In this document: positions 24,539 to 46,496 of the stretch, in pieces
How the letters are laid out: every line of letters starts with the position of its first letter
Position numbering within the stretch: the first letter of the stretch is position 1
Program-made: the position numbers and the translations under genes
Assembly (NCBI GenBank): GCA_964455875.1
Contig: CAYVYZ010000002.1
Span: 655 to 64,654 of the forward strand
DNA from: an uncultured Planctomycetia bacterium
Lineage (GTDB): Bacteria; Omnitrophota; Gorgyraeia; Duberdicusellales; 4484-171
Reading direction: 5' to 3'
Length of the DNA stretch: 64,000 bases
The notes under the pieces: generated by a model
Database searches by the model: none
Told to the model about the DNA's origin: nothing
The model's input: only the letters and a program-made list of their open reading frames with translations

Positions 24539-25162
24539 TTATAAGCCTTCCATTTTAAGTATTCTGCTTTTTTGACCTGAATGTTTATGAAATCCTTGTG
24601 GTATCTTAACAAGGTTACCATACTTTCTTCCCTCGTTCAACTCTGTTTGTTTTGGGAAAACCTCGTGATAACCAAGCCCAACCCTATTTAACCGTGATTT
24701 AACAAGCTTCTGCCCAAACGAAGCTTGAACAGGATTTTTAAAGAATATCCATATATGATAGCCACGCCTACCACTAAATTCAAGTATTCTGGGAAAATCT
24801 TCAAAAAGGTCAAAGATGATGTTGGCTTCTGCCTTGACCCGGCGTAATTCTGCCTCTTCTTCTTTGAACCCACATTTTGGACAAACCCATTTCCAATCCT
24901 TTTCATCAATATAAACTCCTTTATCACGGCACTTCTTACATTTCTTCTTAATATCAATATCAATACAAGCCCACTTAATAGTGTTGTCGTGATTAAGGCA
25001 GTATAGTCCATAAGTTTCTTTTCCTGACATATGATTTTCAATATCCTCAAGAGTTATTGGCCTTCTTTCTGGATAATAATAGCCACCGGGCTGTTGTTTA
25101 GCAAAAACATCTTTCCTATGAACAAAAATGTTAAATATTTCTTCTGCGGATAGCTTTATCAT
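24539..25162 (-). CDS. archaeo-eukaryotic primase-type primase-polymerase (PrimPol-like) with an inserted zinc ribbon
   Basis: CIDIDIKK (DxD), CKKCRD...CPKCG, GRRGYHIWIFF (sGxGyH) and LVKIP. Confidence 0.6.
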   Translation of the reverse strand: MIKLSAEEIFNIFVHRKDVFAKQQPGGYYYPERRPITLEDIENHMSGKETYGLYCLNHDNTIKWACIDIDIKKKCKKCRDKGVYIDEKDWKWVCPKCGFKEEEAELRRVKAEANIIFDLFEDFPRILEFSGRRGYHIWIFFKNPVQASFGQKLVKSRLNRVGLGYHEVFPKQTELNEGRKYGNLVKIPQGFHKHSGQKSRILKMEGL

Positions 25163-25401
25163 CTGTTTAACACCTCTCTCCAATTAATTTTGGCAGGAAT
25201 AAAATGCTTTGGGTCTTCAACAAAATCCCGTATCCAACCACCTTTTAAATCTCCTTCTATTTCTGGAAAATAATATAAAAAACCGTCGTGTTGAACCGTA
25301 TAAATTTTATCCTTAATAAAAAATTTGGAGGCTATACTATTTCCTGGATTAACACATTTCAGTTTTGTGCCTTCTTTATACTTGTGTTTTGGTTTCCACA
25401 T
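25159..25401 (-). CDS. NWK-tail family small protein (member 6)
   Basis: Ends in ...AKINWREVLNR. Confidence 0.45.
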   Translation of the reverse strand: MWKPKHKYKEGTKLKCVNPGNSIASKFFIKDKIYTVQHDGFLYYFPEIEGDLKGGWIRDFVEDPKHFIPAKINWREVLNR

Positions 25402-27698: not shown

Positions 27699-27901
27699 TT
27701 TGATATCCCTTTTATTATTGTTGTGTCTAAATACCTAAGGTTATAACCTTGTTTTACTAACCTCTTTTCTTCTTTCTTTATTTCTTTTACCAAGGCATTA
27801 ATCTTTTTCTTCCTTTCTTCTATACCCGCAGAAAGATAATAGGCATCCCTTATCATTCTACCGAGTTCTTCAAACGAACTATCATCCACTAAATTTTTCA
27901 T
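27695..27901 (-). CDS. hypothetical protein
   Basis: 68 aa. Confidence 0.3.
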   Translation of the reverse strand: MKNLVDDSSFEELGRMIRDAYYLSAGIEERKKKINALVKEIKKEEKRLVKQGYNLRYLDTTIIKGISK

Positions 27902-28259
27902 TTTTTAACACCTCCTATTACAAATTATAGCCCTTTCACATAACGGGCGAACATAACAAATATGTTTACCGTCTATTCTCTTTGATAAATCCTGTTTTTT
28001 AAACCATTTATTATAGGGTTATCAAAATATTTTTTTTATTCCTTCTTTTTCTTGTTCTTCTTCAGTTAAACTATTTATTAATTTTTCTGGGTTCCATAAC
28101 CACTCGTCCATTTTTACACCTCTCATTAAAGCTTTTTGCGGTGGTAAACTCACCATAAAAAGACTTTTTATTACCTATAAGTATAATTCTTTCTTCCTCA
28201 TCACATCTTTTAGCAATACTGCCTAATCTTTTCCTATCTTCATCTACCATTCTTTTCCC

Positions 28260-28553
28260 TCATAACAACTTATAGGTTTTCATAATCTTCCTTCTTAACT
28301 CATCGGTTAGTTTCCCTTTTATTTGTAAAGGTAACATAGCTAAAAAGGCAGCATAAATATTGGGAGCGTCAGGATTATACTTCATTTTTTCGGCAAGCTC
28401 AGGAAAAGCTTCTTGGTGTTTCTTAATAATGTAATGCCTCATCTTAACATCACAATAAAAAACTCCTTTAGCACTTGTCCTTGCCTTCTGATGCTCAAGC
28501 CCAAGCGGAGCTTGGTGTGGAAGCCCGGTATCTGGGTCTATTTGTTCATTCAT
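28260..28553 (-). CDS. hypothetical protein
   Basis: 97 aa. Confidence 0.35.
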   Translation of the reverse strand: MNEQIDPDTGLPHQAPLGLEHQKARTSAKGVFYCDVKMRHYIIKKHQEAFPELAEKMKYNPDAPNIYAAFLAMLPLQIKGKLTDELRRKIMKTYKLL

Positions 28554-28592
28554 TTTTTCTTATCCTCCATTTTCAGATTTCTATACGGGATA

Positions 28593-28874
28593 TTATTTTT
28601 TTAACACCTCTCTCCAATTAATTTTAATGTTATGTAATTTTAAGCATCCTTCCCAAAAAGTTTCTCTTTTAAAAACACCTCCAATTTGGAGCTCCTCCAT
28701 ATATTCAAAGTTATCTCTATGACGGAATTTTGATTTTGAGTTTTCCAAGGTTTTTAAAAAATATCCTGACTCTCCGGCACTGATTACTTCTAATATTAAT
28801 CCTTCTACATCACCACTAACTCCTCTTACTATATCACCTACTTTAAAGGTCATTTTCCAAGCACCTTCTTCCAA
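28593..28874 (-). CDS. NWK-tail family small protein (member 7)
   Basis: Has the FKVGDIVRG element and ends in ...IKINWREVLKK. Its 3' DNA is identical over 26 nt to that of member 6. Confidence 0.5.
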   Translation of the reverse strand: MEEGAWKMTFKVGDIVRGVSGDVEGLILEVISAGESGYFLKTLENSKSKFRHRDNFEYMEELQIGGVFKRETFWEGCLKLHNIKINWREVLKK

Positions 28875-29215
28875 TTAATTTGTTCCCTCTCAACCAATTC
28901 CACATCATCAGGATTAACAATACACCAACCTACCATATCCTTACCTTGAGAATATCCGACAGGCAAACTTCTCTTTTCCCTTCTTTCTTTTTCACCAAGA
29001 ATCCCATGTTTAGGAATTGTTAAATTATGAAATCTTTGTCCCCAAGCCAGAACGGTTAATACGCCATTACCTATACAATCCTTACACTTCATTCCATTCG
29101 CGGCGTCACAACCGCTCTTATCGCCTGTAATAATTACCTTGTCTCCGGGTTTAAACTTCATCAACTTCCACCTCGTGTTTGAAATGATATACAGGATAAA
29201 CCGTATCGTCCTCAA
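28850..29215 (-). CDS. NWK-tail family small protein (member 8)
   Basis: Has the FKPGDKVIITGD element and ends in ...QINWKKVLGK. Confidence 0.45.
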   Translation of the reverse strand: MRTIRFILYIISNTRWKLMKFKPGDKVIITGDKSGCDAANGMKCKDCIGNGVLTVLAWGQRFHNLTIPKHGILGEKERREKRSLPVGYSQGKDMVGWCIVNPDDVELVEREQINWKKVLGK

Positions 29216-29396
29216 ATAAGATTTCTTCTGGCACCCAGTTCTCAGCCTCCATCTTGGACTTTTCTAACGCCTCTATCAACCTTTCTTCTTCTCTTACACC
29301 GTAGCAATAAAGTTGGCGTAATACCTCGTCTGGGCTAACATTTTTCTCATATAATTCCCTAAGTTTATCCACCCAGGGCAGAGTTAATTTACTCAT
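29151..29396 (-). CDS. hypothetical acidic protein
   Basis: 81 aa. Confidence 0.35.
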   Translation of the reverse strand: MSKLTLPWVDKLRELYEKNVSPDEVLRQLYCYGVREEERLIEALEKSKMEAENWVPEEILFEDDTVYPVYHFKHEVEVDEV

Positions 29397-29414
29397 TTTA
29401 ACACCTCCATTTTT

Positions 29415-29711
29415 TCAGGGTTTTTTCAAAATAACCTTCCAATTAGTTATTCTAATTCCAACACCTTTCTTAATTATTTTAACAATTACATTGGCATCAT
29501 CGGTAGTAACATAAGAGCTGCCTAATGTATTTCGGCTTTCTTTGTGTTTTTTTATTGCTCCTTCCGGTGTAGGAGCCCATTCTCCCCATAACTCATTCTC
29601 TCCCCTTATACTTTTTATAATACAATAAGCTCTGAAATCCTTATCATTAACATATTTATCATTAACAAATTTCCATCCTATTAAATCTCCAACCGCAAAC
29701 ACCACTTTCAT
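29415..29711 (-). CDS. NWK-tail family small protein (member 9)
   Basis: Ends in ...RITNWKVILKKP. Its 3' DNA (ttccaattagttatt) is identical to that of member 1. Confidence 0.5.
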   Translation of the reverse strand: MKVVFAVGDLIGWKFVNDKYVNDKDFRAYCIIKSIRGENELWGEWAPTPEGAIKKHKESRNTLGSSYVTTDDANVIVKIIKKGVGIRITNWKVILKKP

Positions 29712-30076
29712 AACCTCAAAACTTCTGATAATTCTTGAAACACCTTCTTGGATATTTCGCCTTTCACAAATAATTTCTGAAGGTGTATAAATTTTTGTTT
29801 ATCCGTTTTAAGCTTTCTTGGATATATGCTGTGAAACAAACTACTCCTTAGAAGTCTTCTACCTTCTCTAAAAACTCTCTTATTCCCTTCCCGAACCGGC
29901 GTCATTCTGCCCCTCACAAATGGGCTCATTCTCTTATTTAGTTCTTTACGGACACAGAAATCGTATTTAGCTTCTGGGTGTTTATGATTAACGCCTTGTT
30001 CTTCACAAACTTGCCTGAATTTACGAAGAAACGCCGTTCTTTCGCTTTCACCGGGCATAGTGAGAATTCTAACCAT
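29708..30076 (-). CDS. hypothetical basic protein
   Basis: 122 aa, rich in R/K. Confidence 0.35.
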   Translation of the reverse strand: MVRILTMPGESERTAFLRKFRQVCEEQGVNHKHPEAKYDFCVRKELNKRMSPFVRGRMTPVREGNKRVFREGRRLLRSSLFHSIYPRKLKTDKQKFIHLQKLFVKGEISKKVFQELSEVLRL

Positions 30077-30167
30077 TTTTATCTCCTCCGTTTTTTTTAA
30101 ATGGTTTGGGTGTTACCCATTAAATAAGAGGGTTATCAGTAGTTCAAAAAAACCCATATGATAGGGA

Positions 30168-30335
30168 TTAATATAACCATTCCTCTTCTTCGTCATCATC
30201 ACCTTCTGGATATTTAATTTCTTTGGGAGGTTCCCCCCCAGAATTCTCTCTTTCTATATCTTCAACTAATTTATCAATCCTTCTCTCTATTTCCTCTTCG
30301 TTTTCTTCCTCATCAAAGATAAATTCCTCTGACAT
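30168..30335 (-). CDS. small acidic protein (55 aa) with an N-terminal EEFIFDEEE motif
   Basis: I translated it by hand: MSEEFIFDEEENEEEIERRIDKLVEDIERENSGGEPPKEIKYPEGDDDEEEEWLY. It is not in the ORF track because it is under 60 aa. Confidence 0.35.
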   Translation of the reverse strand: MSEEFIFDEEENEEEIERRIDKLVEDIERENSGGEPPKEIKYPEGDDDEEEEWLY

Positions 30336-30550
30336 ATGGGCACCTCCGAATAATATTTTAATTTTCTTTGAACCTCTGATTTTAGAGTTCCGTTTTTTTT
30401 ATAAACGAGGTAATCGTGATTAAGTATTGGGTGAAACATTTTAAACTACTCTTTTTTTTCTTTATAGGTTTTTATTGATTTATATCTTTATAAATGTTTC
30501 GTTTTTTAGAAACCGATAAAAAAGAATAGGAAAAAAAATAAAAAAAGTTT

Positions 30551-31240
30551 TTAACTAAATGAAAACTCACTCGGTCCTCTGGCTTTCTCTACTTGTTTAG
30601 CAAGGATTTCCTTTGCTTCACTAATTAGCTTCTCTGCTTTTTCGGCGCCAAACTTCTCGTTTGCTACTTTCCTAATGGTTTCTTCTTTTGTGCCGCCACT
30701 AAGCCCTTCCACTATCATATTGACATATTTTTCGTCGCCTGTTTCTCTTGGGGTTGTTGTATCTGTTGCTATTGGAACCGGAGCTACTTTCTGTGTTGCC
30801 TTTTTCACTATCTTTATTGGTTGTCCCAAGTATGGTTTTCCGTTAATAGTAACGGTCCATTTTGCTCTCTCGGCATCTGTTTTCCAATTACCCAAGCTCC
30901 CAATTCCTTCTTTGGGCATTCCTGTCATATCACACCAATAGTCTTCAAGGTCTTTTGTGTTTCTCAGGTCTATTTTGTTTGCCTGTAACCACTCCATTCC
31001 TTTTTGGTTTATCTTCAAATAAAGATAAACCCCAGGCTCTACTTTTCTTGGTGTTTGGGTGGCTTGACAAGTGCTTGTCTCGCCTGTTTCGTTGTTCTTA
31101 ACAACAACGGTTGCGTTAGGCATTTTAGCCATAGTTATCCCCTCCGTTTTTGTTTTTAGGTTTTGTTCGGAAACCAAACCTGCTTTTGGTTTCCAAAACT
31201 GGGATTGATTTCTGGCTTTATAAATGTTTTGGTTTTTCAT
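30551..31240 (-). CDS. hypothetical protein with a C-terminal EFSF motif
   Basis: Ends in ...ARGPSEFSFS. An alternative start exists at Met37 (31132). Confidence 0.4.
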   Translation of the reverse strand: MKNQNIYKARNQSQFWKPKAGLVSEQNLKTKTEGITMAKMPNATVVVKNNETGETSTCQATQTPRKVEPGVYLYLKINQKGMEWLQANKIDLRNTKDLEDYWCDMTGMPKEGIGSLGNWKTDAERAKWTVTINGKPYLGQPIKIVKKATQKVAPVPIATDTTTPRETGDEKYVNMIVEGLSGGTKEETIRKVANEKFGAEKAEKLISEAKEILAKQVEKARGPSEFSFS

Positions 31241-31671
31241 CGCCTGCTTTCCCAGTTTTTATATGCGAAATCATTAGCATAATCCTCTGACAGCATATAT
31301 ACCTCATACCATTTTTCTTTTCCCATAAGTTCGTGTAAGTGCCCTAATTCGTGTAGTAAAACAAATTTAAACCTGTCCCGGGACATATTATCAAACATTC
31401 CTATTGTTATTCTTGTTTTTCCACAATCCCAAAACTCAAAAACTCCTTCTCCACTACCTTGACCTCTAAACCTTACTTGGGCTGTGGTAAAATATATGTT
31501 AGTAAGCCCATTAAAATATTCTTCTGGCACCTCAGATAACACCTCGTTTATTAATGTCTTATTTAACCCATACTCATAACCGATATAATAACCTGATACC
31601 GGGTTTAACAAAAACAATATTGGTATTACCGATAAAATTATTTTCATCATTTTTTCTTCCCTCATAACCAT
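31237..31671 (-). CDS. secreted zinc metallopeptidase (HExxH)
   Basis: An N-terminal signal peptide (MMKIILSVIPILFLLNPVSG) and the motif LLHELGHLHE. Confidence 0.5.
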   Translation of the reverse strand: MVMREEKMMKIILSVIPILFLLNPVSGYYIGYEYGLNKTLINEVLSEVPEEYFNGLTNIYFTTAQVRFRGQGSGEGVFEFWDCGKTRITIGMFDNMSRDRFKFVLLHELGHLHELMGKEKWYEVYMLSEDYANDFAYKNWESRR

Positions 31672-31994
31672 ATAAGGTGGTTGTGTTCTTCTACTACTTC
31701 ACCCATAGCTTTTAAGGAGTCCAGAGTTTTTTCGCCGTATATCTTCACGAATTCGTGAGCCTGGGATAACTTCATATAATTAATTGCCTGTAATTCTTCT
31801 GCTTTTAACATATTATAAGCTATTAGGTGCTTACAAGTAACCCCTCGTATATTAAAATCCATACATTCGCAGGAAGTCCCTGTTACTAAATATCCTCTAA
31901 TAGTCATACTGCCGTCATCATTATAACTGAACTCACCCCTGGCTATTATTTGTTTTGCCTTTTCCTCTCTTGAAACAGAGTTATTCTGCCTCAT
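31662..31994 (-). CDS. SWIM zinc-finger protein
   Basis: CECMDFNIRGVTCKH (CxCxnCxH). Confidence 0.5.
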   Translation of the reverse strand: MRQNNSVSREEKAKQIIARGEFSYNDDGSMTIRGYLVTGTSCECMDFNIRGVTCKHLIAYNMLKAEELQAINYMKLSQAHEFVKIYGEKTLDSLKAMGEVVEEHNHLIWL

Positions 31995-32000
31995 TTTTTA

Positions 32001-32108
32001 TTCGTCCTCCTCTTCCATTCTTTCTTTGTCTCCGGGGCATCCTTTCTTATGGAATTGGTGCCTGAAATAAAAACTATATTCCATTCCGCAATATGGACAT
32101 CCCATTTT
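32001..32108 (-). CDS. CPxCG zinc-ribbon mini-protein (35 aa)
   Basis: I translated it by hand: MGCPYCGMEYSFYFRHQFHKKGCPGDKERMEEEDE. Confidence 0.3.
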
Positions 32109-32126
32109 TATCTCCTCTGTTTTTTT

Positions 32127-32504
32127 TTACTTTCCTTGTATTGGTTTTTTCTCGGTTTCACCATAATTACAAACATTACAACCCCAGAAAAATCCTTCAA
32201 CTTTCTTTAGTGGTCTTATGGCTCCTAAGATAAGTCGTTGGTAAGGCGTATTTACCGGGATTTTTTGTAAATACCCATCTTGACACATAGGGCATTTAAT
32301 CCATTCATTCACGAAGCCTGTTTCTTCTGCTATCCTTTCTTCTGGTGTTTTGGGTTTGTCAAATGAGAATTCTGGGTTTGACCCGGCGTCTTTCTGCCCC
32401 TCTATTTCTTCAAAGCTGAACTCGGGTTCAACTTCAAAGCTGAATTCGTGTTTCCTCTTCATTTTTTTTTCACCCCTCAAAGCTGAATTCGGGTTCGGTT
32501 TCAA
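32127..32504 (-). CDS. zinc-binding protein with an N-terminal triple EFSF motif
   Basis: HEFSFEVEPEFSFEE...NPEFSFDKPK, followed by CPMC...CNVC. Confidence 0.45.
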   Translation of the reverse strand: MKPNPNSALRGEKKMKRKHEFSFEVEPEFSFEEIEGQKDAGSNPEFSFDKPKTPEERIAEETGFVNEWIKCPMCQDGYLQKIPVNTPYQRLILGAIRPLKKVEGFFWGCNVCNYGETEKKPIQGK

Positions 32505-32727
32505 AGCTGAATTCGGGTTCTTTCGTTGTTTCAGGCTTCGTTTCTGCTTCTGCTTCTACGAGGGGGCTAATATCTAAATTGAGTATCCCCTCTATTTTTT
32601 GACACACTTTAAGGCCGTGCCCACAAGCTTTATCGCAGGCCTGAGCTAATTCTGGTTTTAGCTCGGTGCCGATATTAATCAAACCGTCTATCGGTGTGCC
32701 ACAGAACAAACAATTCATTCCTGACAT
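32470..32727 (-). CDS. Cys-rich protein with a C-terminal double EFSF motif
   Basis: CLFCG...C..AC, with the tail ...KEPEFSFETEPEFSFEG. Confidence 0.45.
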   Translation of the reverse strand: MSGMNCLFCGTPIDGLINIGTELKPELAQACDKACGHGLKVCQKIEGILNLDISPLVEAEAETKPETTKEPEFSFETEPEFSFEG

Positions 32728-32795
32728 TTTTTCGCCTCCACATTTTATTTTTTTTCTATTAAGAAGGTAGAAAAACTACTATTTAAATCTTTCGC

Positions 32796-32826
32796 AAAAC
32801 CAGCCGCTACTACTAAATAGTGATAC
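32796..32826. repeat. isolated copy of the CTACTACTAAATAGTGATA iteron motif
   Basis: gccgctactactaaatagtgatac matches the unit of the array at 35060-35295. Confidence 0.4.
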
Positions 32827-33085
32827 TTCACTACTCTATAATGATGACATAATAAAGGTGTATTAATTTATTAGTGGTTATAGCTTTTTACTACCATTAA
32901 GTATTAAAAATTTATATGGGTAAGCTATATCAGGAGTATATCAAATTCGCATTTCCGAGCTGTTCCTGGGGTGTTCCCACTATACCCTGACTCAAACTAC
33001 CTATTTACAGGAAAACCCTTTAAAACCCACGGAAACAAGCAAACCGAAAACAATAACTATCACTAATACCGTATATTGTCTTTAT

Positions 33086-33245
33086 TAAGAAAGGTGGGAA
33101 ATAAGTTGGATAAGCGGAATAAGGTGGAAAAAAGGTGAAAAAAGGCGGAAATAAGTGAAATAACGGATAGCGGGATAGCGGAATAGCGGGGGATGGCGGA
33201 ATGGTGGGGTAGCGGAATAATGGATAGCGGATAGCGGAATAAGGT
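33086..33245. repeat. polypurine tract of about 160 nt built from degenerate 8-10-nt tandem repeats (GGATAGCGG / GGAATAAGGTG)
   Basis: The + strand is almost exclusively A/G: ...cggatagcgggatagcggaatagcgggggatggcggaatggtggggtagcggaataatggatagcggatagcggaataaggtg. It is followed directly by a pyrimidine run, tccctcctcgcctcactccc. Confidence 0.6.
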
Positions 33246-33320
33246 GTCCCTCCTCGCCTCACTCCCAACCCTAAACAATAAAAACAGGTGTTACCACTAC
33301 TACATAATAAAGTTAGTGTT

Positions 33321-33410
33321 TGGGAAAGGCGCGGCGCGTTGGGAGGCGCCGCAGAAAAATTATAGCCGCGCCGCAAAGTTTTTTTATAGGCGCGCCGCAG
33401 AAAACTGTTA
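33321..33410. repeat. GC-rich palindromic box GGCGCGCCGCAGAAAA in three or four copies
   Basis: The copies are aggcgccgcagaaaaa, agccgcgccgcaaagttttt and aggcgcgccgcagaaaac, plus an inverted ggcgcggcgcg. Confidence 0.55.
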
Positions 33411-33500
33411 GCCGGAGAGATTTTCATATTTATGCCTATGATTATGATTGTGCCCACGGTTTTTCATATGGTTTTCCGATTTTTTTCCAAACGCCGTTCA
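33411..33500. promoter_or_regulatory. AT-rich stretch between two GC-repeat clusters, a candidate DNA-unwinding element
   Basis: ttttcatatttatgcctatgattatgattgtg...ggttttccgatttttttcc lies between the GC boxes on both sides. Confidence 0.3.
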
Positions 33501-33504
33501 TAGT

Positions 33505-33685
33505 GCTGGGCGCGGCAGAGAAAGATTGGGACAGGCGCGGCGCTGAAAGGCGCCAGTTCGTCAGGACCGAACCATCTAATCCATCCATCTATAGGCCAGA
33601 ATGACATCAGTTCAGGGAAAAGGCTCGGTCCACCTCGGCGCTGAAAGACGCCGGTTCACACGCAGCCTGTGTGAACCCGCCAAAC
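33505..33685. repeat. second GC-rich cluster of hairpin-forming repeats
   Basis: ggcgcTGAAAGgcgcc and cggcgCTGAAAGAcgccg (both with GAAA loops), the 10-bp near-complementary pair ggaccgaacc/ggctcggtcc, and the perfect palindrome ttcacac-gcagcct-gtgtgaa. Confidence 0.55.
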
Positions 33686-33790
33686 TCTGTCCTTAACCCA
33701 GATTTCACTAAATCTGAGTCCCTTTATTCTCTTCTTACATATCTTACATTTCTTGTTCTTCTCCCTTATTAATATTTGTTCTTCTTTCAT
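33659..33790 (-). CDS. small Cys2-His-Cys mini-protein (43 aa) ending inside the GC palindrome
   Basis: I translated it by hand: MKEEQILIREKNKKCKICKKRIKGLRFSEIWVKDRVWRVHTGCV. Confidence 0.25.
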
Positions 33791-33913
33791 CTTGTATCTC
33801 CCCCCAAACATTTTTTTGAGTATAGAGCGAAACCCCTGATTAATCCATCTGAGTTCATCTGGCGTTAATCAGATTAAAAAAATTCAAAAAAAACAGAGAG
33901 AAAGAGTTTTTAA

Positions 33914-34078
33914 TCATTTGTTTTTATAATGTTTTTGTGTTTGCTCTTTTATAGTCTTAAAAGTTAATTCTGTGATTTCTTTACTTGGCTTTATCATTTC
34001 TGGCGTTTTATAAAAGCACTCTTTACAATATCCACCAATAGTATTTTTGTATTCTTTACATTCTTTACATATTCTCAT
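33914..34078 (-). CDS. zinc-ribbon mini-protein (54 aa)
   Basis: I translated it by hand: MRICKECKEYKNTIGGYCKECFYKTPEMIKPSKEI... Confidence 0.35.
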   Translation of the reverse strand: MRICKECKEYKNTIGGYCKECFYKTPEMIKPSKEITELTFKTIKEQTQKHYKNK

Positions 34079-34147
34079 TCTTATCACGCTCCAGACTTTT
34101 ATTTTTTCGTTGTTATAAAAATAAAATAAAAAAATAAAAAAGTTTTT

Positions 34148-34717
34148 TTATTCAAAGTTAAAAGTTGTTTCTGGCTTGACTTTATAATAATTATAAAGTC
34201 TTTCTCTACTTGATTTATTGTTGAAGTTGTTGTTTATTACTTTTATAGTCTTTTCTGCGTCTGGTAATGGCTTACCAGATTTTTTAAGTTTCTCATAATA
34301 CTCGTTGTATTCGTTGATAAATCGCTGTTCTTTCTCTGTTAAGTCTTTTGTTGTGTCTGTTCTCGCTGGATTGGTTTCTGTTTCTGGTTTTCTTGGTTTT
34401 CGCTGGTATCCAACAGATTTTAGTATTCCACATTCAAAATCGTATTTGTTCGTTGCTTTAAAGTTTAGTGCTTTCATTAGATACTTAGCTTCTACTGGTG
34501 TAAATTGTGCGTTTATTGTTATCTCTCCAACGATACCAGAACGTTCTCGTGGTTTAAGTTGTTTATTCCATAATATACTTTCGTTTGTTTTTGCGTCTTT
34601 TAACTCGTATAGTTTTTGCTCAGCCATTTTATTTTTGCTCCAATATTCTTTTTTTAAGTCTATTATTAACCAATAAGCTTTTAAGCCATAAGAAAGTTTA
34701 AAACTTATGGCTCTCAT
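34148..34717 (-). CDS. hypothetical protein flanked by repeat arrays; its C-terminus is FNFE
   Basis: 189 aa (the start may be at the internal MAEQKLYEL). It ends in ...KPETTFNFE, and non-coding iterons lie on both sides. Confidence 0.4.
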   Translation of the reverse strand: MRAISFKLSYGLKAYWLIIDLKKEYWSKNKMAEQKLYELKDAKTNESILWNKQLKPRERSGIVGEITINAQFTPVEAKYLMKALNFKATNKYDFECGILKSVGYQRKPRKPETETNPARTDTTKDLTEKEQRFINEYNEYYEKLKKSGKPLPDAEKTIKVINNNFNNKSSRERLYNYYKVKPETTFNFE

Positions 34718-35059
34718 TAAGCTTATTAATTATTAAATAAGTATAATGCTACAACATATAAAGCTTATTTTTTCTGTTTTAAACCATATAAGTTTTATAC
34801 TCTTATATGATTAAGCTTTATGGTGTATTATGATAACAATTTTTAAGTTGTTATCGTTTGGTGTTGTTTTTCGCTGTTAATAAGTGAATTCTGTAAATAA
34901 AACTTTTTGTTGTTTGTTTTCGCTGGTGTTTTTGTTTCATACAACGAATTAATGAAAGCACATATTTAAATGTTTCGTTTTGGGCTGTATATAGATATAC
35001 ATAAAGCTATACTAAAAACTTTGGAGTAGTGACAAAAATCAGTTTATAAATATTTCGTT

Positions 35060-35295
35060 ATTTGTCACTACTAAAAAGTAATAACAAAGGCGCTACTACT
35101 ATATAGTGACAACAATATTGATACTATTAAAGAGTGATAACAAAGGCGCTACTACTAAAGAGTGATAACAATAAAGTAATTACTAAAGAGTAATAACAAG
35201 GCGTTATTACTAAATAGTGATAACAGAATGTCGCCATTTCAAAATAGTAACACACAACAATACTATAACCACTACTATATAGTGATAACACACAT
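35060..35295. repeat. iteron array of about nine degenerate direct repeats with a ~28-bp period
   Basis: The unit is (AGGCG)CTACTACTAAAGAGTGATAACAA. Copies start near 35064, 35093, 35128, 35150, 35178, 35205, 35241 and 35270. They abut one another with no unique spacers. Confidence 0.6.
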
Positions 35296-35433
35296 AACAA
35301 TATGAGAATAAGACATTATTCGTATAAACGGCGTTTAGAATAGTTTAATTACTATCTGGTAGTGATAAAATATACCTTCCCGAAATCTCGGGCTAAAATT
35401 TAAGAAATAACTGTGTTATGCACTTATTATTTT

Positions 35434-36480
35434 TTATTCAGAACTAGTTATTATCTTTCTTATTCTCTTAGCAGTGTTCTTTATGTGTTCCTCGGCTTCT
35501 TCGTCTGTTTTATTAGATACTTGGCTTACATACCTTTTTAGGTTAGCATAATGTAGTGGTAGTAGGTGTTTTGTTGTTTCTTCCGGGGTGTAATCATTGT
35601 TTTGTGCCGCCGCGATTAGTGTTAGAGGCCAGGTTCTTCTTCTTAGCGGGTTGTAGTTGTTTTTTTCTTCTAGGTTTTTTGTGTTCGGGATTAGTGTTTG
35701 TTCTTCTTTTTTCTGTGGTTCGCCTATAATGGTTGGTGTGATTACAGGGCCTAACCGCGGAGAGTGTTTGCGCATAACACGAAGGAGTGTGTTGTTCACT
35801 TCGTGGAACATCTGGGAGAGGTCTGTCGCTGGGTCTTTAACATTATGAATTTTGCTTCCGAGATGAGCCTGGGCTAACTCGAAGTTGTTAAGCAATGCGT
35901 TAAGAGTCATAAAAACATCTATTCCGAAGCCACGAACATCTCTGTCCCAGGGTAAAGACATCAAGTATTCGATGAATTTAACACTAAGTCCGAACTCTCC
36001 TCCGATGGGCTGACGGACGTTTATCCCGTAAAAACCGTAGATAAGAGGATAAACAATATGGTTGGTGATAGTCGCGTCAAACTTGTGCCTGGAATAAAGA
36101 GGGAGAACAAAATCGGCTCCGGCTAACACCGGCTCACAAAGATTCCTCACCCAAAAAGGCTTAATGCTGGTTAAATCAGCATCGACAACAATCACTGCCC
36201 TTGGGTGTAACTCCAAAACCAGGCTGAACAAATTAAAGAAGTTATTGCCTTTCCCCTTAACACCAGGCTCAGAAGATAAGTACTTCTTAGGAATACCTAA
36301 GGTGTTAGCCTTCAAAAACTCTTTACGAGTATTATCAGGACTACAATTATCAACGTTAACAATAAGAGAATTAAGATTAGAAAAATATTTGTTAAGCCCA
36401 ACAGCAACTACTTCTACCACACGCCTAATAGAGCTTTCTTCACAATAACTGGGAATACCGACGATAATATCAACACCCAT
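35434..36480 (-). CDS. glycosyltransferase, GT-A fold (GT2/GT81-like)
   Basis: DIIVGIPSYCEE...LIVNVDNCSPDNT...AVIVVDADL (the DxD motif). Confidence 0.6.
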   Translation of the reverse strand: MGVDIIVGIPSYCEESSIRRVVEVVAVGLNKYFSNLNSLIVNVDNCSPDNTRKEFLKANTLGIPKKYLSSEPGVKGKGNNFFNLFSLVLELHPRAVIVVDADLTSIKPFWVRNLCEPVLAGADFVLPLYSRHKFDATITNHIVYPLIYGFYGINVRQPIGGEFGLSVKFIEYLMSLPWDRDVRGFGIDVFMTLNALLNNFELAQAHLGSKIHNVKDPATDLSQMFHEVNNTLLRVMRKHSPRLGPVITPTIIGEPQKKEEQTLIPNTKNLEEKNNYNPLRRRTWPLTLIAAAQNNDYTPEETTKHLLPLHYANLKRYVSQVSNKTDEEAEEHIKNTAKRIRKIITSSE

Positions 36481-36544
36481 AAAAGAAATAATGTATCTTC
36501 ACCTATTTAAATGTTTCGATTAAAAAACAAGAAATCTTCTCGCC

Positions 36545-37168
36545 TTAAATGATTTTATCAGCTAAACCAAGTTTAACTGCTTCTTCGGCGCTCATATAAT
36601 AATCGTATTTCATTAACTCCCTAAGCTTTTTTCTAGTGAACTTAGGATGCTTTTTACGTATCTGAGCTAGATAAATGTTTTCCATGAGCTCGTTTATACG
36701 ATTAGTTTCTTCTGCGGCCCTAACAAAATCTTTAGTATGAACCTGGTCAGTAGCTTCTGTTCCGTAATGAATCATAACCCTGCAATTCTTAGATAAAACT
36801 CTCTCTTTACAAGCCTGTAAGATTATGCTTCCCATACTCCTACAACGACTATAAGCAATCATTTTAACAGGGCTCTTAAGAGTTCTGATGAACTCATAAA
36901 TAGCCATACCTGCGTCCCATTCACCACCATGACTATTCCAAATAAGAGTAATCGTCTTATGGTTTATTTGGTCTAACAAGTATAATCCTTTAATAAGCTG
37001 TTCTGCACTCCAATCATTCACTTCCATGCTTTCACCAGTACCAAGACCTAAATTAATACTGCTGTTAGCACCATAATAAATCGTTCTGGTCTTATAATCG
37101 ATGTTATATTCAAAAAAATACGCGATGTCCGTTTCAACCAATTTTCTTTTTACCATTTTAACACTCAC
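36545..37168 (-). CDS. ClpP-like serine protease (S14 family)
   Basis: ITLIWNSHGGEWDAGMAIYEFI...SRCRSMGSIILQAC...VMIHYG...MSAEEAVKLGLADKII. Confidence 0.65.
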   Translation of the reverse strand: MSVKMVKRKLVETDIAYFFEYNIDYKTRTIYYGANSSINLGLGTGESMEVNDWSAEQLIKGLYLLDQINHKTITLIWNSHGGEWDAGMAIYEFIRTLKSPVKMIAYSRCRSMGSIILQACKERVLSKNCRVMIHYGTEATDQVHTKDFVRAAEETNRINELMENIYLAQIRKKHPKFTRKKLRELMKYDYYMSAEEAVKLGLADKII

Positions 37169-38820
37169 CTTATTAATCCCATCTGAATCTTCCTAACCAA
37201 ATCAGATTCGTGTTTACTTTCACCAAATCCTTTATAAGGGTCAAAAACACCTCTACCGCCTCCCTCCGTAATAGCGAAAGGAACACTAGCGTTTTGGGTG
37301 GCTCTGTTAGCAAGAGCTAAAGCCATAACACAATCATCGTAAGCACCAACGCTTTCATACTTGTAATTACCTGCGGGAGTTTTCAACTCACAAAACTTAC
37401 CAAGTTCTTCCTCAATTACTCGCATCACATTAATACTTGTTTCGTCTCCTTGGGGAAAAATAATTTGTTCGTGCTCAAAACTAATAATAAGAAACTTGAT
37501 AAGATGTTCTTTTTTCTGACCCTTACCACCAGTAACAAAACTATCAATGTTAAGATTGTGTTTATCAACTAGTTCATCAATTAAGTCTTGACCAAAATTG
37601 TTTTGTTCAACCAAGATGTAAGGATGATTAAATCTTCTGCTAATCTCAGCGATTTTTTTTGCTTGTTCACTGATTTTTAAGCCTTTCTCGCGCCAAACAT
37701 GAACTATTTGTTTTTCGTTAGTAATAGTATTAAACGCCATGATTATCATAACAGAATAATCTGCGCTGGCACTACCACTACGAGCAACGTCAACACCACC
37801 AACAAACACCCAGTTTTTATCTCTCTTATCACTTTTTGGAAGCAAACAAATGTCTTTTCCCTTGCTCTTAGCAGGTTTTATAAGCCAGTCTGGGAAAAGA
37901 CTAGCGTCTCTACTAAAGAATTCTAATTGATACTCCCTAGAAAACTTAAGAGGGCCCATAGATAAACGTTTCTGCATTAAATCATTCCAAGTGAACCTAT
38001 CAGGACACTGAATAATTCTTTTCTCATAATCAAGAATAGCTGGGTATCTACGTATCACCCAGACACTTCCCTGTTTAACACGATTAGCTATAGTAGTAAA
38101 AATGTCTGTGTCTGTCTTAGGAGTACCAACAAGAATCATTTGTCCTTTACGATTTAAAAGCATTGGGTCTAATACCATATCAATATAATCTTCTATTTCT
38201 CTATCACTAAGCCTATTATCTGTTCTAAGAATATCATCGATGACTATTCTGTCAACATGCTGACCAAGAATCTCACTACCAATCCCTTTCACAAGGATAT
38301 AACCACCATTATAACCAATTGTTTCAACAGCCCATTTATTAGGATTCTTCTTACTGATTAACCACTCATTATTCTCGATAATAGACTTTAATTCTTCTAA
38401 TATACGGTTTGCTTGTTCTTGACTAGCACTAACAATTATAATCCTCCTATATTTAAATAAGAACATATCATAAATACTAAGAATTTCCGAGAAGAAAACA
38501 GATTTTCCATGTCCCCTAGCACAAAGAATAGCTAAATATCTGTTTTTCTTTACAAGTTTATCCCAAGAACGAAGAAGTTTGTTAAACCTAAAAGGTGCAG
38601 GAAAACCAATATCTGTTAGGGGGCCTATAATGAACTTACAGAAAAAATATAGACCTTTATCCTTATCATAACATAATTCTAATATTGACTTAAAAAGAAA
38701 AGCGTGTAATGTGTTCTTATCATACCTACTAAGTAAATTCTTGTAAGAGAGTTCTAGGTTTCCAGTTTTTTCAACTACCCAATCACAATAATCTTTGTAA
38801 ATATCCTCATACGTTCTCAT
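37165..38820 (-). CDS. terL: terminase large subunit
   Basis: Walker A ILCARGHGKSVFFS and Walker B RIVIDDIL. The nuclease domain has VGGVDVARSGSASADYSVMII and YDDCVMALALA. Confidence 0.85.
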   Translation of the reverse strand: MRTYEDIYKDYCDWVVEKTGNLELSYKNLLSRYDKNTLHAFLFKSILELCYDKDKGLYFFCKFIIGPLTDIGFPAPFRFNKLLRSWDKLVKKNRYLAILCARGHGKSVFFSEILSIYDMFLFKYRRIIIVSASQEQANRILEELKSIIENNEWLISKKNPNKWAVETIGYNGGYILVKGIGSEILGQHVDRIVIDDILRTDNRLSDREIEDYIDMVLDPMLLNRKGQMILVGTPKTDTDIFTTIANRVKQGSVWVIRRYPAILDYEKRIIQCPDRFTWNDLMQKRLSMGPLKFSREYQLEFFSRDASLFPDWLIKPAKSKGKDICLLPKSDKRDKNWVFVGGVDVARSGSASADYSVMIIMAFNTITNEKQIVHVWREKGLKISEQAKKIAEISRRFNHPYILVEQNNFGQDLIDELVDKHNLNIDSFVTGGKGQKKEHLIKFLIISFEHEQIIFPQGDETSINVMRVIEEELGKFCELKTPAGNYKYESVGAYDDCVMALALANRATQNASVPFAITEGGGRGVFDPYKGFGESKHESDLVRKIQMGLIR

Positions 38821-39029
38821 TGTTCTGTCTTTTTCTTTTTTGAAGTTTCCTTCTTTTTCTTTTCCTCTTCCTTTGTTTTTATATTAATAAATGGGTTGTC
38901 ATAATCTTCGATATTATCCAAACCAATTTTTTCAATAAGACATCCTAAACAATATGTGAATCTTTTACCTCCTCCCATTAATCTCATCACCCATGTATTA
39001 AAGTGTCCACATTTATTTTTTATTGCCAT
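38817..39029 (-). CDS. small zinc-ribbon protein upstream of terL
   Basis: CGHF...CLGC with a K/E-rich tail. It may be a terminase-associated protein. Confidence 0.3.
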   Translation of the reverse strand: MAIKNKCGHFNTWVMRLMGGGKRFTYCLGCLIEKIGLDNIEDYDNPFINIKTKEEEKKKKETSKKKKTEQ

Positions 39030-40095
39030 TTTTTATTACCTCTTTCATTTCCATTATTCTATGAATGAATGTGTGTTTGGTTAAAACCGTTCTCTGTCCA
39101 TTCCTACCAATTTTCTTACATAATTCTTCGTTTTTCAAAAGAAAGTCTATCATATCTATTAAACCATCTTCATCGTAATAAACTAATAGGTCTTCTTCTC
39201 CAGTAATTTTTTCTCCTTTCTTATTAATCTTAAACATATTTTCCATTCCTTTACAATAGGTGGTTAAATATAGACCTCCTGCGCACAAAACTCTATAGAG
39301 TCTTGCGCTGAAACCAAGCTCTATGTCTGGGTCTTGGTCTATACCAAGATTAATAATGGAAGCTTCTACAACCATACTATGAATAAGATTTATAGCTTGT
39401 TTGTTTGTATGAACTGTTTTTAATATTGGTGGTAGTAACTTCCATTCACACACAACAGGTCCCCAGATTTTCAGGTCAAACCCCTCTTCAGCCAGTCTTG
39501 TAAGTATTTTTACTCTATTAGAGTGTTGTTTTAAGAAACCAATACTACCAATAAACGTTACGTCAGAACCATACTTCTTCCTTTGATAAGCGTTTAAATA
39601 AACACCTTTATTCAGATTAGGATAACACCCCTCGTCTAAATACCTTACGTTTTCAAAACCAGCCTCTTTGAGTTTATCAGCCACTCCTTTTAAACTACAA
39701 AAAAAGTAATCATAAAATTTAATAGCTTCAAAAAACTCTGTTTGTTCCCAAATTGGTTTATCAACAAGATACTTATCAAAGAACCAATTAACTATTTTTG
39801 CTTTTGGAAATTTTTCTCTTAATTTTTTTAGTGTGTCCATATGAAGCTCTAATCCTTTAAAAACAATGATTAAATCATAATCTGTTTCAAAAACATCGAT
39901 TTCTTTTAAAATACGTGGTTGAGCATTAAATATTCCTTCTTTATTAACAATAACTCGGATATCTATACCATCAACTCTATAACCGCTTTCTTGAAAAGAT
40001 AGTGCTATATACCACGCAGTCTGCCTATCTTTGAAGCTACCAAGCAACAAAACATTCTCTTTTTCTTCTTTTTTCTTGTTCATGACCACCACCAA
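39013..40095 (-). CDS. glycosyltransferase, CgeB-like GT-B family
   Basis: SARLYRVLCAGGLYLTT...HTFIHRI. Confidence 0.5.
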   Translation of the reverse strand: MVVVMNKKKEEKENVLLLGSFKDRQTAWYIALSFQESGYRVDGIDIRVIVNKEGIFNAQPRILKEIDVFETDYDLIIVFKGLELHMDTLKKLREKFPKAKIVNWFFDKYLVDKPIWEQTEFFEAIKFYDYFFCSLKGVADKLKEAGFENVRYLDEGCYPNLNKGVYLNAYQRKKYGSDVTFIGSIGFLKQHSNRVKILTRLAEEGFDLKIWGPVVCEWKLLPPILKTVHTNKQAINLIHSMVVEASIINLGIDQDPDIELGFSARLYRVLCAGGLYLTTYCKGMENMFKINKKGEKITGEEDLLVYYDEDGLIDMIDFLLKNEELCKKIGRNGQRTVLTKHTFIHRIMEMKEVIKNGNKK

Positions 40096-41020
40096 TATCT
40101 TTTTTTAATTCTTCTGCTGTAACAGTTGCAGTTCCAAGCTTCCCAACAACGATGCCTGCGGCATGATTAGCAAGTATAGCACTTTCTTCAAGAGACAAAC
40201 CAGATACTAGTGCAAGAACTAATCCTGCTACAAAAGTGTCTCCGGCACCAGAAACATCATAAACTTTCTTTGCTTTAGTAGGAATATGTGTGTGTTTTTT
40301 TGTGTGTTTATCAAATATGGAAAGGCCTTCCGGTCCTCGTGTAACTATGACATTCGAATTTAATTTTCTTAATAGTTTCTTACCAATTTGTTTGATATTA
40401 TCTGCTCCACACATTTCTTTTGCTTCCTTCAAATTTGGTGTTACAACAAAAACTTTTTTAAACCAATTAGTATGTGCTGGTGTTGGGTCAACCACCACTT
40501 TCATCTGATTATTCTTCAACTCTTTCATAAGTCTTTGTGTTATCATGCCTTTGTTATAATCAGAAACTATTATCATATCAAAGTTGTTTTGCTTAGAGAA
40601 CTTTATAATCCCATTAATTAATTTTCCTGGTAAAGGATTACATACTTCCCAATCAATTCTTAATAATTGTTGTCCGTTAGCCATAGCTCTTGTTTTCTTA
40701 ATGGTAAGATAATCTTCTCTCTCTATCAGGTTTGGTATAATGTTGTGTGTTGCCAATAATTTTAGTAACATATCTTTTTCATTATCATTTCCTACTTGTC
40801 CTATAAGAGTGCACTTTCCTCCAAGGGAAGTGATGTTGCTAGCTAAATTTGCGGCGCCACCAGCACGATAATCTACTTTCTTAACATTTATAACCGGAAC
40901 AGGAGCTTCTGGGCTGATACGATTAACATCTCCAAAAAGATATTCGTCCACCATTAAATCTCCAATAACCAAAATATTGGCTTTATTGAACTTATTAATT
41001 GCTCCTATTAATTTTTTCAT
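40037..41020 (-). CDS. sugar kinase of the pfkB family, resembling D-beta-D-heptose 7-phosphate kinase (HldE/RfaE domain I)
   Basis: ILVIGDLMVDEYLFGDVNRISPEAPVPV and DVSGAGDTFVAGL. Confidence 0.7.
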   Translation of the reverse strand: MKKLIGAINKFNKANILVIGDLMVDEYLFGDVNRISPEAPVPVINVKKVDYRAGGAANLASNITSLGGKCTLIGQVGNDNEKDMLLKLLATHNIIPNLIEREDYLTIKKTRAMANGQQLLRIDWEVCNPLPGKLINGIIKFSKQNNFDMIIVSDYNKGMITQRLMKELKNNQMKVVVDPTPAHTNWFKKVFVVTPNLKEAKEMCGADNIKQIGKKLLRKLNSNVIVTRGPEGLSIFDKHTKKHTHIPTKAKKVYDVSGAGDTFVAGLVLALVSGLSLEESAILANHAAGIVVGKLGTATVTAEELKKDIGGGHEQEKRRKRECFVAW

Positions 41021-42096
41021 TTTCTCACTATAGACTCCATTATTTTAAGCATAGCTCTGGCAATATTGTCAAAACTACCGGTTTCTCTACCATGCACAAC
41101 ACCTTGTTTAAGTCTGTTTTTTATCACATCTCTCTTGAGAGACCTTACATAAGCTATTGTTTCTGCCAGACTAAACGGATTAGTGACATCACAGTAAAAA
41201 GGAAAATCACCATATAAATCATGAAGTATTTTAAAATCTCCACAAATAACGGGTTTTCCAACAAACATCCCTTCCAGGGGACTAAGACCAGCAATATATT
41301 CGGTGTTCTGTGGATATAAAAGCATCGCGCTGTTTTTAATAAGTTCGAACTTCTCTTTCTGGGTTATAAGGCTTTTGTGTTCAAATGGAATGTTGTTCTC
41401 TTCACACACTTTCTTTATAAGTTCTAACTCCCCCCTATCTCGTCCAATACAAAAATATTTTAAATCTGGTTTTAATAAAGCTAGGGCTTTGGCTACCATT
41501 AAACAATTCTTTTTTGGTGTGAGCCTGGAAATAGTAATAACGTAATCTCCTTCTATATCTAACCCAGCTCCTTCATACTCCGGAAACAAATCTGTTCCAG
41601 CAGGAATCACATGAGTATCAGGGAACCAGTGTTTAGTATACTTATAATATTCGTCCCTAGCTACATAAGTATTAAAAATTAGTGTGTCTGCTTGTTTTAA
41701 AACATCAAACCAAAAAGACCATTGTCGCATTCTCCACCTTTCTTCTTTCATAGCATCTGTTGGGACATCAAGTATCATTATTCCCCATGGTAATTTATAA
41801 ACTCTTGCTAGATAAGCTACTACCGGTGATATCGGTGTGTGTGAACCAAATATTAAATCAAACTTTTCTCTAGCAAACAAATCAAGAGTCTTACTATGCA
41901 TTTTCGCAGGCACAAAAAACTTCTCGTAATCTATGTTAATCCTTGTAAGATTTTCATGTGGCTCTATAGGATTATCTTTATCATATTCGTCTAGTTGTTG
42001 AACAACAGCGGTAACTTTATGACCCGCTCTACAAAAAGCGTTACAAAGCCCAATCACAAAATTCGCGCTTTCAGCACCAAAATATAATATGTTCAT
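41017..42096 (-). CDS. glycosyltransferase family 4-like (GT-B)
   Basis: GLSPLEGMFVGKPVICGD. Confidence 0.6.
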   Translation of the reverse strand: MNILYFGAESANFVIGLCNAFCRAGHKVTAVVQQLDEYDKDNPIEPHENLTRINIDYEKFFVPAKMHSKTLDLFAREKFDLIFGSHTPISPVVAYLARVYKLPWGIMILDVPTDAMKEERWRMRQWSFWFDVLKQADTLIFNTYVARDEYYKYTKHWFPDTHVIPAGTDLFPEYEGAGLDIEGDYVITISRLTPKKNCLMVAKALALLKPDLKYFCIGRDRGELELIKKVCEENNIPFEHKSLITQKEKFELIKNSAMLLYPQNTEYIAGLSPLEGMFVGKPVICGDFKILHDLYGDFPFYCDVTNPFSLAETIAYVRSLKRDVIKNRLKQGVVHGRETGSFDNIARAMLKIMESIVRK

Positions 42097-46495: not shown

Positions 46496-46496
46496 T

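Follow-up and report, generated by a model that had tools for sequence, protein, structure and literature searches.

The 64-kb stretch of DNA analysed here (the window; 34.9% GC), which we read from its gene content as an uncultivated archaeal head-tailed virus, carries at positions 33086-33685 a GC-rich non-coding island that appears to be a conserved cis-acting DNA locus, made up of direct-repeat sites for a sequence-specific and probably virus-encoded factor. Comparison with related sequences shows that the island is non-coding, that its repeats and the family of 17-nt sites to which some of them belong are real, that these are conserved and have evolved lineage by lineage, and that its syntenic position is conserved. 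As to function, we favour a replication origin or replication-control region, although we give this reading somewhat less than an even chance and infer both the protein binding and the role in replication; control of transcription ranks close behind. Of all the results, the family of 17-nt sites is the most useful. To our knowledge, almost nothing has been described of the cis-acting elements (origins, operators, polar sites) of archaeal tailed viruses, which are uncultivated. What emerges here is a non-coding island that is conserved and keeps its place in the genome, a 17-nt site whose sequence is defined and varies by lineage, and a relative with origin recognition boxes (ORBs) at the same locus; the start and control of replication in archaeal tailed viruses become approachable with sequence data and recombinant proteins alone.

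The right half of the island had been described in the first-pass annotation, a reading of the letters made before this analysis, as a series of GAAA-loop hairpins. The repeats are real, but what that reading missed is that the two hairpins (33539-33554 and 33636-33653), together with a third sequence between them, are tandem copies of a dispersed and asymmetric 17-nt site, C(A/T)GAA(A/T)GACGCCGGTTC. Copy 1 (CTGAAAGGCGCCAGTTC, 33543-33559, plus strand) forms the first hairpin, copy 2 (CAGAATGACATCAGTTC, 33597-33613, plus strand) has none and is identical in the relative L282, and copy 3 (CTGAAAGACGCCGGTTC, 33641-33657, plus strand) forms the second hairpin and overlaps the stop codon of the open reading frame (ORF) 33656-33811 on the minus strand. 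The hairpins are present as described, but the first is disrupted by G33550A in two strains (L203 and L087) and in the 86%-identical relative L282, and the same change brings copy 1 nearer the consensus. A33646T in L203 does likewise for copy 3. With up to three mismatches allowed, the site has 7 matches in the window where 0.04 are expected.

Five further copies lie elsewhere in the window. One (35224-35240, plus strand) sits within an operator-like array upstream of the promoters of the gene at 34148, and is kept in L282. The other four are on the minus strand and are associated with genes: 32380-32396, inside ORF 32127-32504(-), sense and in frame 2, where L282 has an AAT variant, a non-synonymous change towards the consensus; 29893-29909, an exact consensus inside ORF 29708-30076(-); 24836-24852, inside the AEP primase gene 24539-25183(-), sense and in frame 3; and 15676-15692, which covers the start codon of ORF 15395-15688(-). 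Those of the window use three different reading frames, and across the genomes compared gene-embedded copies are in the sense orientation in about 10 of 10 cases. The copy in ORF 29708-30076 is identical at 17 of 17 nt to that in its homologue in L002, a distant relative from the same sampling project (TerL 60% identical), while the two proteins are just 30% identical; this identity within diverged proteins, along with the use of three reading frames, argues for selection at the nucleotide level. The codons of this copy include ACG and CCG, with a GC-rich third position, and such codons are expected to be unusual in a 35% GC genome. Single-nucleotide polymorphisms (SNPs) among strains cluster in or near the sites (33550, 33616, 33646, 35237 and 32400), two of them shifting a copy towards the consensus.

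The site extends across the virus family. L002 contains at least nine copies, and L282, L284 and L287-L289 have site variants of their own, such as CAGAGTAACGCCAGTTC or CTGAGCAACGCCGGACC, with weaker ones in L283. A degenerate pattern finds 23 matches in nine related genomes against about 0.06 expected, with seven of the nine positive and none in L001 or L283. In essence, the pattern is family-wide, uniform within a genome and different between genomes, which suggests that the site has co-evolved with a cognate trans-acting factor. The polar site and its variants may represent an undescribed cis/trans system of an archaeal tailed-virus family, in which a virus factor reads an asymmetric sequence that is concentrated in a non-coding island and also placed, invariably in sense, within early and replication genes, a possibility that we regard as real though on balance doubtful. 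We believe that this site family has not been described so far, while the general kind, namely iterons, operators and dispersed polar sites, is well known from bacterial phages and plasmids. In practice, the site can serve as a marker for recognising members of the family. Beyond these relatives, the exact 17-mer is found in IMG/VR in the L002 contig only, and among the matches listed for a degenerate 17-mer in metagenome contigs nearly all are chance occurrences in GC-rich genomes, with only L087 related. A search of 185,579 reference genomes gave 72 exact matches, a chance level, in unrelated taxa; hence no host copy, provirus or link to clustered regularly interspaced short palindromic repeats (CRISPR) emerges from it. 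An exact 16-mer of the hairpin has 70 matches in IMG/VR, all of them in unrelated GC-rich contigs. We also rejected a CRISPR array or solitary repeat unit (SRU): CRISPR repeats are 24-37 nt long with unique spacers of similar length, whereas the repeated part here is 15-17 nt and the spacings (22, 24, 120, 25 and 98 nt) are irregular.

The island itself is the sole non-coding region of the 64 kb with a GC content of at least 50%, and its parts can be followed from left to right. A weak archaeal promoter-like element is predicted at 33010-33025 (plus strand; GGAAAACCCTTTAAAA, pattern [CGA]GAAA-N(1-4)-TTTA(A/T)A(A/T)); it points into the purine repeats and is kept in L282. These repeats (33090-33246, plus strand; units GGATAGCG and AAGGTGGAAAA) are resolved by Tandem Repeats Finder into a period of 8/16 at 33165-33241 (9.6 copies) and of 10-11 at 33121-33160, and the tract is 78% purine; the tandem repetition claimed earlier is thus confirmed, and the description of the tract as nearly pure A/G is not. 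The adjoining pyrimidine run is present at 33247-33272 (plus strand) and partly kept in L282. It is followed by a 43-nt block (33280-33322, plus strand), identical in the window, L203 and L282, that holds an operator-like half site, GTTACCACTACTACATAATAAAGTTAGTG, similar to the operator family described below. Three direct GC boxes of the GCGCCGCAGAAA type come next (33343-33403, plus strand), starting at 33343, 33365 and 33389, spaced 22-24 nt and each followed by a TATA-like A/T run; two more lie at 33509-33523 and 33534-33548 (plus strand). Scored against GGCGCGCCGCAGAAA with at most three mismatches, four island copies (33343, 33389, 33509 and 33534) stand as good GC-box repeats, in line with the earlier description, and the fifth at 33365 is degenerate. 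Over the whole window this gives 5 matches against 0.26 expected, including one weak match outside the island with three mismatches (35710-35724, minus strand). Between the left and right boxes lies a spacer (33415-33505) that had been taken for an AT-rich stretch; at 36.3% GC, compared with 34.9% for the genome, it is AT-rich only against its own flanks. To the right, a 10-bp near-complementary pair (33565-33574/33622-33631) and the perfect palindrome ttcacac-N7-gtgtgaa (33655-33675) are both present as reported, the palindrome, however, forming the last codons and stop of ORF 33656-33811(-), which encodes a 51-aa zinc-finger protein.

Whether this island could be decayed coding sequence is answered by comparison with its closest relatives. 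Near-identical strains were found as contigs with identical flanking proteins (L074-L080, L087, L203 and L205), and L282 was found by a terminase search (TerL 97% identical; DNA 86-88% identical across the region). Relative to the window, the purine repeats carry changes of +19 nt and -13 nt in L203/L087 and span only about 75 nt in L282. L203/L087 also lack one 24-nt GC-box unit, and four 1-nt indels are present in L282. Because these 1-, 13-, 19- and 24-nt indels separate strains and relatives and leave no reading frame intact across the island, it is judged to be non-coding, and the program-called ORFs that span it are not conserved. By nucleotide sequence, in contrast, identity between the window and L282 is 97-100% in the GC boxes (33340-33420), in the block at 33280-33322 and in the right half (33505-33715), while the spacer has diverged by about 25%, a pattern from which the island is judged to be under selection. 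It would accordingly surprise us greatly if the island were a decayed gene or a low-complexity stretch arisen by chance. The island does contain possible ORFs of 55-145 aa, and over about 26 nt site copy 2 is similar to the part of ORF 29708-30076 that encodes RMTPVREG, but the repeat statistics lie far above chance, the boxes stay nearly identical while the frames shift, and the syntenic equivalents in relatives are likewise non-coding. This last comparison, which the first-pass annotation had named as the one that could expose a degenerate gene, contradicts such a gene. Small "MTPV" peptide ORFs were rejected as candidates too, the island ORF being frameshifted in L282.

The equivalent of the island can be located in relatives by gene order, which is the same in all of them. 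TerL and small genes are followed by an operator-repeat gap, an orphan gene, a non-coding gap, and a homologue of ORF 30551-31240. In the window, the orphan is the family-specific 34148 gene (34148-34627, p189-like), and ORF 30551-31240 is p229-like. An equivalent non-coding gap of 0.8-1.7 kb is present in every relative examined across the interval, and tandem 17-nt sites, in two or three direct copies 44-58 nt apart, occur in the gaps of the window, L282, L283, L288 and L289, where some of the copies in L283, L288 and L289 have weak model support only. An extra site copy lies within the upstream operator array, in either orientation; the array copy of the window is matched by an equivalent one in the L287 array and by weaker ones in those of L002, L283 and L289. 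Short CTATCC/GGATAG repeats, seen by inspection, recur in the gaps of L002, L283 and L284. Small ribbon-helix-helix-like genes lie on the opposite strand within the gaps of L287 (17227-17445, minus), L288 (14377-14556, minus) and L002 (15854-16141, minus); the window lacks such genes. L002 also has five GC-rich non-coding islets (14960-15090, 15700-15850, 16190-16270, 17230-17700 and 20220-20640), each with one 17-nt site and a recurrent GCCGAGG motif and lying between small genes of both orientations. Its TerL (8021-12082) is 1353 aa long with intein/homing-endonuclease insertions, and several other TerL homologues of 850-960 aa carry intein or LAGLIDADG Pfam domains.

One relative differs at this locus in a telling way. 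The equivalent gap of L284 contains one weak 17-nt site together with a canonical ORB, GTTCCAGTGGAAATGA-GGG (19210-19222), and a mini-ORB, TTCCAGTGGAGAT (19276-19291), 66 nt apart; these are 2 matches to the ORB consensus against 0.07 expected. The boxes agree with the published archaeal ORB consensus, CTTCCAGTGGAAACGAAAGGGGT, and with that of the Methanomassiliicoccales, GTTCCAGTGGAAATGG-AGGGGTA (PMC4153887, Table 2). The L284 gap reads like a swap of initiator-binding modules at a single locus, and its boxes are the most concrete functional hint of an origin. Contig L285 ends 5 nt ahead of the first of these boxes.

How would the island act as an origin? It lies between the first early cassette (the 34148 gene and two zinc-finger genes) and the next early operon. 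It is hypothesized that a factor is loaded at the sites on either side of the spacer (five GC boxes and three tandem 17-nt sites), and that the spacer then opens. More speculatively, the labile purine tract downstream of the weak plus-strand promoter might favour an R-loop, and the scattered single 17-nt sites, all of one polarity, may be secondary sites for the same factor. The three or more direct repeats of an iteron origin, of about 17-22 bp and in helical phase, are found both in the GC boxes and in the 17-nt sites starting at 33543, 33597 and 33641. The direct repeats at helical spacing, the unique locus, its conserved syntenic position and the L284 ORB pair all speak for an origin, and we count as further support that the virus supplies replisome parts of its own (RFC, clamp, AEP primase, ligase and RadA). 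Should this reading hold, the locus could belong to an initiator/iteron system that is new and specific to the virus and that, to judge from L284, can be exchanged for host ORB boxes.

The closest parallels are the iteron origins (P1, pPS10, the lambda origin, and the P4 origin with crr). Like the island, these have direct repeats of 15-22 nt at a spacing of about two helical turns, with a flanked spacer, copy numbers that vary among strains, extra site copies beyond the main cluster (P1 incA and P4 crr are such copies), and lineage-specific site variants that imply a cognate binding protein. Unlike them, the island has no recognised initiator gene beside it, its spacer is not AT-rich relative to the genome, a second class of site is spaced 44-54 nt, single copies of one polarity occur in ORFs, and the host is archaeal. 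Orc1/Cdc6 origins share with the island an intergenic, repeat-bearing locus in an archaeal replicon and, in L284, an ORB pair in the syntenic gap, but the repeats of the window are unrelated to the ORB sequence and no orc1/cdc6 gene was found.

Several observations weigh against an origin at the island. Cumulative GC skew, which the first-pass annotation proposed as a check, has its window-wide minimum not here but at about 49.9 kb, at the divergent promoters of the strand switch. On the plus strand, both GC and AT skew become a little less negative past the island, on its right side compared with its left (p ~0.01), a difference in keeping with an origin at the island, though confounded by gene content. 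The spacer has genome-average GC and offers no AT-rich unwinding element. ORB or mini-ORB boxes (TTCCAGTGGAAA core) are absent from the island, from the window (where matches fall below chance) and from seven other relatives, so that a single relative carries them. No orc1/cdc6 gene was found among about 50 ORFs scanned, and no initiator (Orc1/Cdc6 or Rep) was recognised next to the island; the small flanking proteins have no match in Pfam, PHROGs or NCBIfam, and an AlphaFold (AF2) model of the 34148 product, built without an alignment, is unusable at a predicted local distance difference test score (pLDDT) of 49. The consistent sense orientation of gene-embedded sites fits a transcription-coupled or RNA-level role equally well. 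Sites in the gap differ in orientation between relatives: they oppose the genes (antisense) in the window, L282, L002, L284, L287 and L289 but follow them (sense) in L283 and L288. Those of L002 are spread over several small GC-rich islets with interleaved polarity. Overall, the repeat-site layout and conserved locus of the proposed origin stand, the AT-rich element does not, and no ORB or initiator was recognised in the window, leaving an origin plausible. A nick-site hairpin for an HUH endonuclease was considered and rejected: the loop partly resembles NAGTATTAC, but there is no Rep gene and the stem is unconserved.

Several of the same observations fit a polar regulator of transcription as well as they fit an origin. 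Here, a virus regulator bound at the asymmetric 17-nt site would block or modulate elongation in a polar way, as in a stoperator or insulator. In the island, the three copies share the direction of plus-strand transcription and would keep antisense transcripts from reaching the convergent early cassette, and the single intragenic sites would damp early and replication genes. We consider this possible, though not probable. The site is asymmetric and occurs in many copies in both coding and non-coding DNA, and all ORF-embedded copies are sense, so that orientation follows transcription; likewise, two antisense copies of L002 lie just downstream of minus-strand genes and are co-oriented with them. 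In several relatives a copy lies within the operator array upstream of early promoters, and the island itself stands between two promoters that are each preceded by a palindromic operator array. In the window, eight 28-nt tandem units with the palindromic operator-like site GTTATCACTnTTTAGTAGTAGC (35059-35290) lie directly upstream of the promoters at 35044-35057 and 34964-34977 (minus strand), and two copies of the same palindrome (32801-32849) lie upstream of the minus-strand promoter at 32781-32794, which serves ORF 32470-32727. The palindrome has 7 matches in the window against 0.01 expected, all directly upstream of two early promoters, and the same family of palindromes (GTTAYCACT-N4-AGTAGTAAC type) precedes the equivalent gene in L002, L283, L284 and L289. 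The weak plus-strand promoter at 33010 and the ribbon-helix-helix-like opposite-strand genes of the L287, L288 and L002 islands also agree with such a regulator. However, the window has no recognisable repressor or integrase, transcription of the island from the plus strand is a prediction, and the 22-24-nt GC-box array, the purine repeats and the L284 ORB boxes are left unexplained. We know of no such mechanism for archaeal RNA polymerase. The stoperators of cluster A mycobacteriophages (L5 gp71) resemble the window in having asymmetric 13-17-bp sites, both between and within genes, whose orientation follows the direction of transcription, in numbers on the scale of tens of copies per genome and clustered at the early control region. 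They differ in that the window has an archaeal host and RNA polymerase, no identified repressor or lysogeny module, and a tandem triple at an operon end and not at a promoter. Should the polar-regulator reading prove right, archaeal viruses could here offer their first example of polar silencing of the stoperator kind.

The sense polarity of ORF-embedded copies could also reflect RNA. In this reading, which the first-pass annotation offered as its alternative and which we think improbable, the plus strand of the island would give one or more non-coding RNAs, and the 17-nt sequence would be an RNA motif with a hairpin loop, C(A/U)GAA(U/A)GA, shared with mRNAs, for example as an RNA-binding-protein site, sponge or decoy. 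A GC-rich island in a 35% GC genome would suit such an RNA, as would the weak promoter-like element at 33010 that points into it. On inspection, island copies in the window and L002 pair with a CUCGGC lying upstream, forming CUCGGC(G)/(C)GCCGG stems in which U-G wobble works solely on the motif-sense strand. When the window, L282 and L203 are folded jointly with RNAalifold, the consensus has a plus-strand z of -2.6 against -0.8 on the minus, and for a hairpin in the spacer alone z = -2.6 against +0.1 (column shuffles). In this hairpin, which closes off the spacer on its right (about 33475-33536, plus strand), a U-rich arm pairs with GAGAAAGAUUGGGA, and pairing is retained through G-U-compatible changes: among three sequences only, 10 one-sided changes and 1 two-sided change keep a pair and 4 break one. 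It is the only plus-strand hairpin to be backed, and then weakly, by these folding models.

Most of the remaining evidence runs counter to a structured RNA. Rfam returns no matches at gathering thresholds in the whole window, its best E-values (0.32-0.81, at 16-18 bits against gathering thresholds of 55-66) being at chance level, and ARAGORN finds no tRNA or tmRNA gene in the window. Single-sequence folding gives z of only -1.7 (plus) and -1.3 (minus). A custom covariance model of 33505-33681, a type of search that the first-pass annotation had proposed for 33300-33700, recovers the window and L282 alone and no more distant relatives, and in the right half the L282 substitutions disrupt 4 predicted pairs, none of them with compensation. 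Two predicted elements, the hairpin at 33539-33554 and a helix at 33328-33352, are broken in relatives (the helix is lost in L282), no stem forms at copy 2 or in the L288 copies, and operator-array copies occur in either orientation. Plus-strand transcription of the island is thus possible, while a large conserved RNA fold is unsupported. The first hairpin resembles the nut boxB of lambda and P22, with a 5-bp GC stem and a GAAA-type loop (GGCGC-UGAAAG-GCGCC, compared with GCGCUGACAAAGCGC in P22). Nut sites work with the bacterial Nus machinery. Unlike boxB, however, the stem is broken in close relatives, there is no boxA, and the host is archaeal. A C/D-box small RNA, a K-turn or K-loop, and a mimic of the tRNA T-arm were rejected on inspection, as the boxes, spacing or pairing are absent.

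Assembly ends bear on a further explanation. Of 25 contig ends from independent assemblies within 27711-38870, 9 lie no more than 10 nt from a copy of the site (binomial p ~7e-10), at 33645 (in two independent contigs), 33594, 32392, 32394, 32370, 35236, 35248 and 29887. Assemblies thus break preferentially at the 17-nt site, which may account for the breaks in the region. Strain SNPs, recombination, nicks or modification are possible causes. The co-occurring strain L075 (6651-6746) carries, beyond 34070, an unrelated small Cys-rich gene in place of the 57-aa zinc-finger gene (33914-34087), which by sequence is gene-cassette mosaicism beside the island, and on the same comparisons the region is a hotspot of strain heterogeneity. 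The sites might then be linkers for swapping cassettes or marks of DNA ends, in a hotspot of recombination and module exchange or a packaging/terminus region, an explanation to which we attach a low probability, lower than that of an RNA. It draws on the contig ends, the L075 replacement, the variation of copy number and gene content in the region, the position of sites at gene starts and domain junctions, the exact 17-mer shared with L002 from the same sampling project, and the RadA and Cas4/Dna2-like nuclease that the virus encodes. A passive scar, however, would not persist at about 60% TerL identity nor vary in concert by lineage. Other contigs (L076, L079 and L203) read through the island uninterrupted, no overlapping ends were found, nor any terminal repeat between the head and tail of the window, and the breaks near 35236-35248 may reflect the 28-nt tandem array. 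T4 PeSL (promoter early stem-loop) elements and lambdoid boundary sequences are linkers for cassette swapping between co-infecting viruses. As in T4-type PeSL cassettes, the small and variable early ORFs of a hyperplastic region are bordered by short regulatory motifs that recur, and breakpoints of assemblies or strains coincide with these motifs; unlike PeSL, the 17-nt motif is not a promoter (the family promoter being CGAAAnnTTTAAAT) and its stem-loop is unconserved.

The reading of the window as an archaeal head-tailed virus rests on RadA, RFC, clamp, AEP primase, TerL, portal and an archaeal-type promoter. The window comes from a contig of about 65.2 kb. From position 1 up to about 49.4 kb its genes are on the minus strand, and beyond that on the plus strand. 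Those for the virion and packaging include the large terminase (TerL, 37165-38820), a Clp-type protease and a Mu-like portal (49950-51431), and those for replication include a class II RNR, an RFC small subunit, a weak PCNA-like clamp, an AEP primase and an ATP-dependent ligase. The RadA/Rad51 protein carries a helix-hairpin-helix (HhH) domain (E = 7e-76), and the closest named cellular RadA proteins, about 57% identical, belong to Woesearchaeota and Nanoarchaeota. A BLAST search with 30.5-38 kb found no match among 50,697 phage records, and a homologue search with a 122-aa ORF returned only itself. Operon starts are marked by a sharp promoter, CGAAAnnTTTA(A/T)A(A/T), with family consensus CGAAAnnTTTAAAT, derived from the virus family itself as the virus was read as archaeal; since it is of the type that combines a transcription factor B recognition element (BRE) with a TATA box, it supports an archaeal host. 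In addition to the three minus-strand promoters given above, it occurs on the minus strand at 30488-30501, 36505-36518, 49846-49859, 14900-14913 and 12085-12098, and on the plus strand at 49918-49931.

Three minor features of the coding sequence deserve mention. The TerL and Clp protease genes sit at 35434-49422 amid about 12 kb of glycosyltransferase, aminotransferase, methyltransferase, epimerase and sugar-kinase genes, a block that is kept yet variable in all relatives and that suggests glycosylation of the virion or DNA. The only GC-rich spot (at least 50%) beyond the island, at 13.6-13.8 kb, is coding: it corresponds to a small ORF (13637-13831, minus strand; 53-55% GC) for a 64-aa Gly/Arg-rich protein with a double CxxC zinc ribbon. 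Finally, an acidic peptide motif, (P)EFSF(E/D/S), is repeated at C-terminal and internal positions in the early proteins of three neighbouring ORFs, 32470-32727, 32127-32504 and 30551-31240, all on the minus strand; a 43-nt DNA repeat (32410-32452 and 32477-32519) underlies it, and the motif may be a short linear docking motif.

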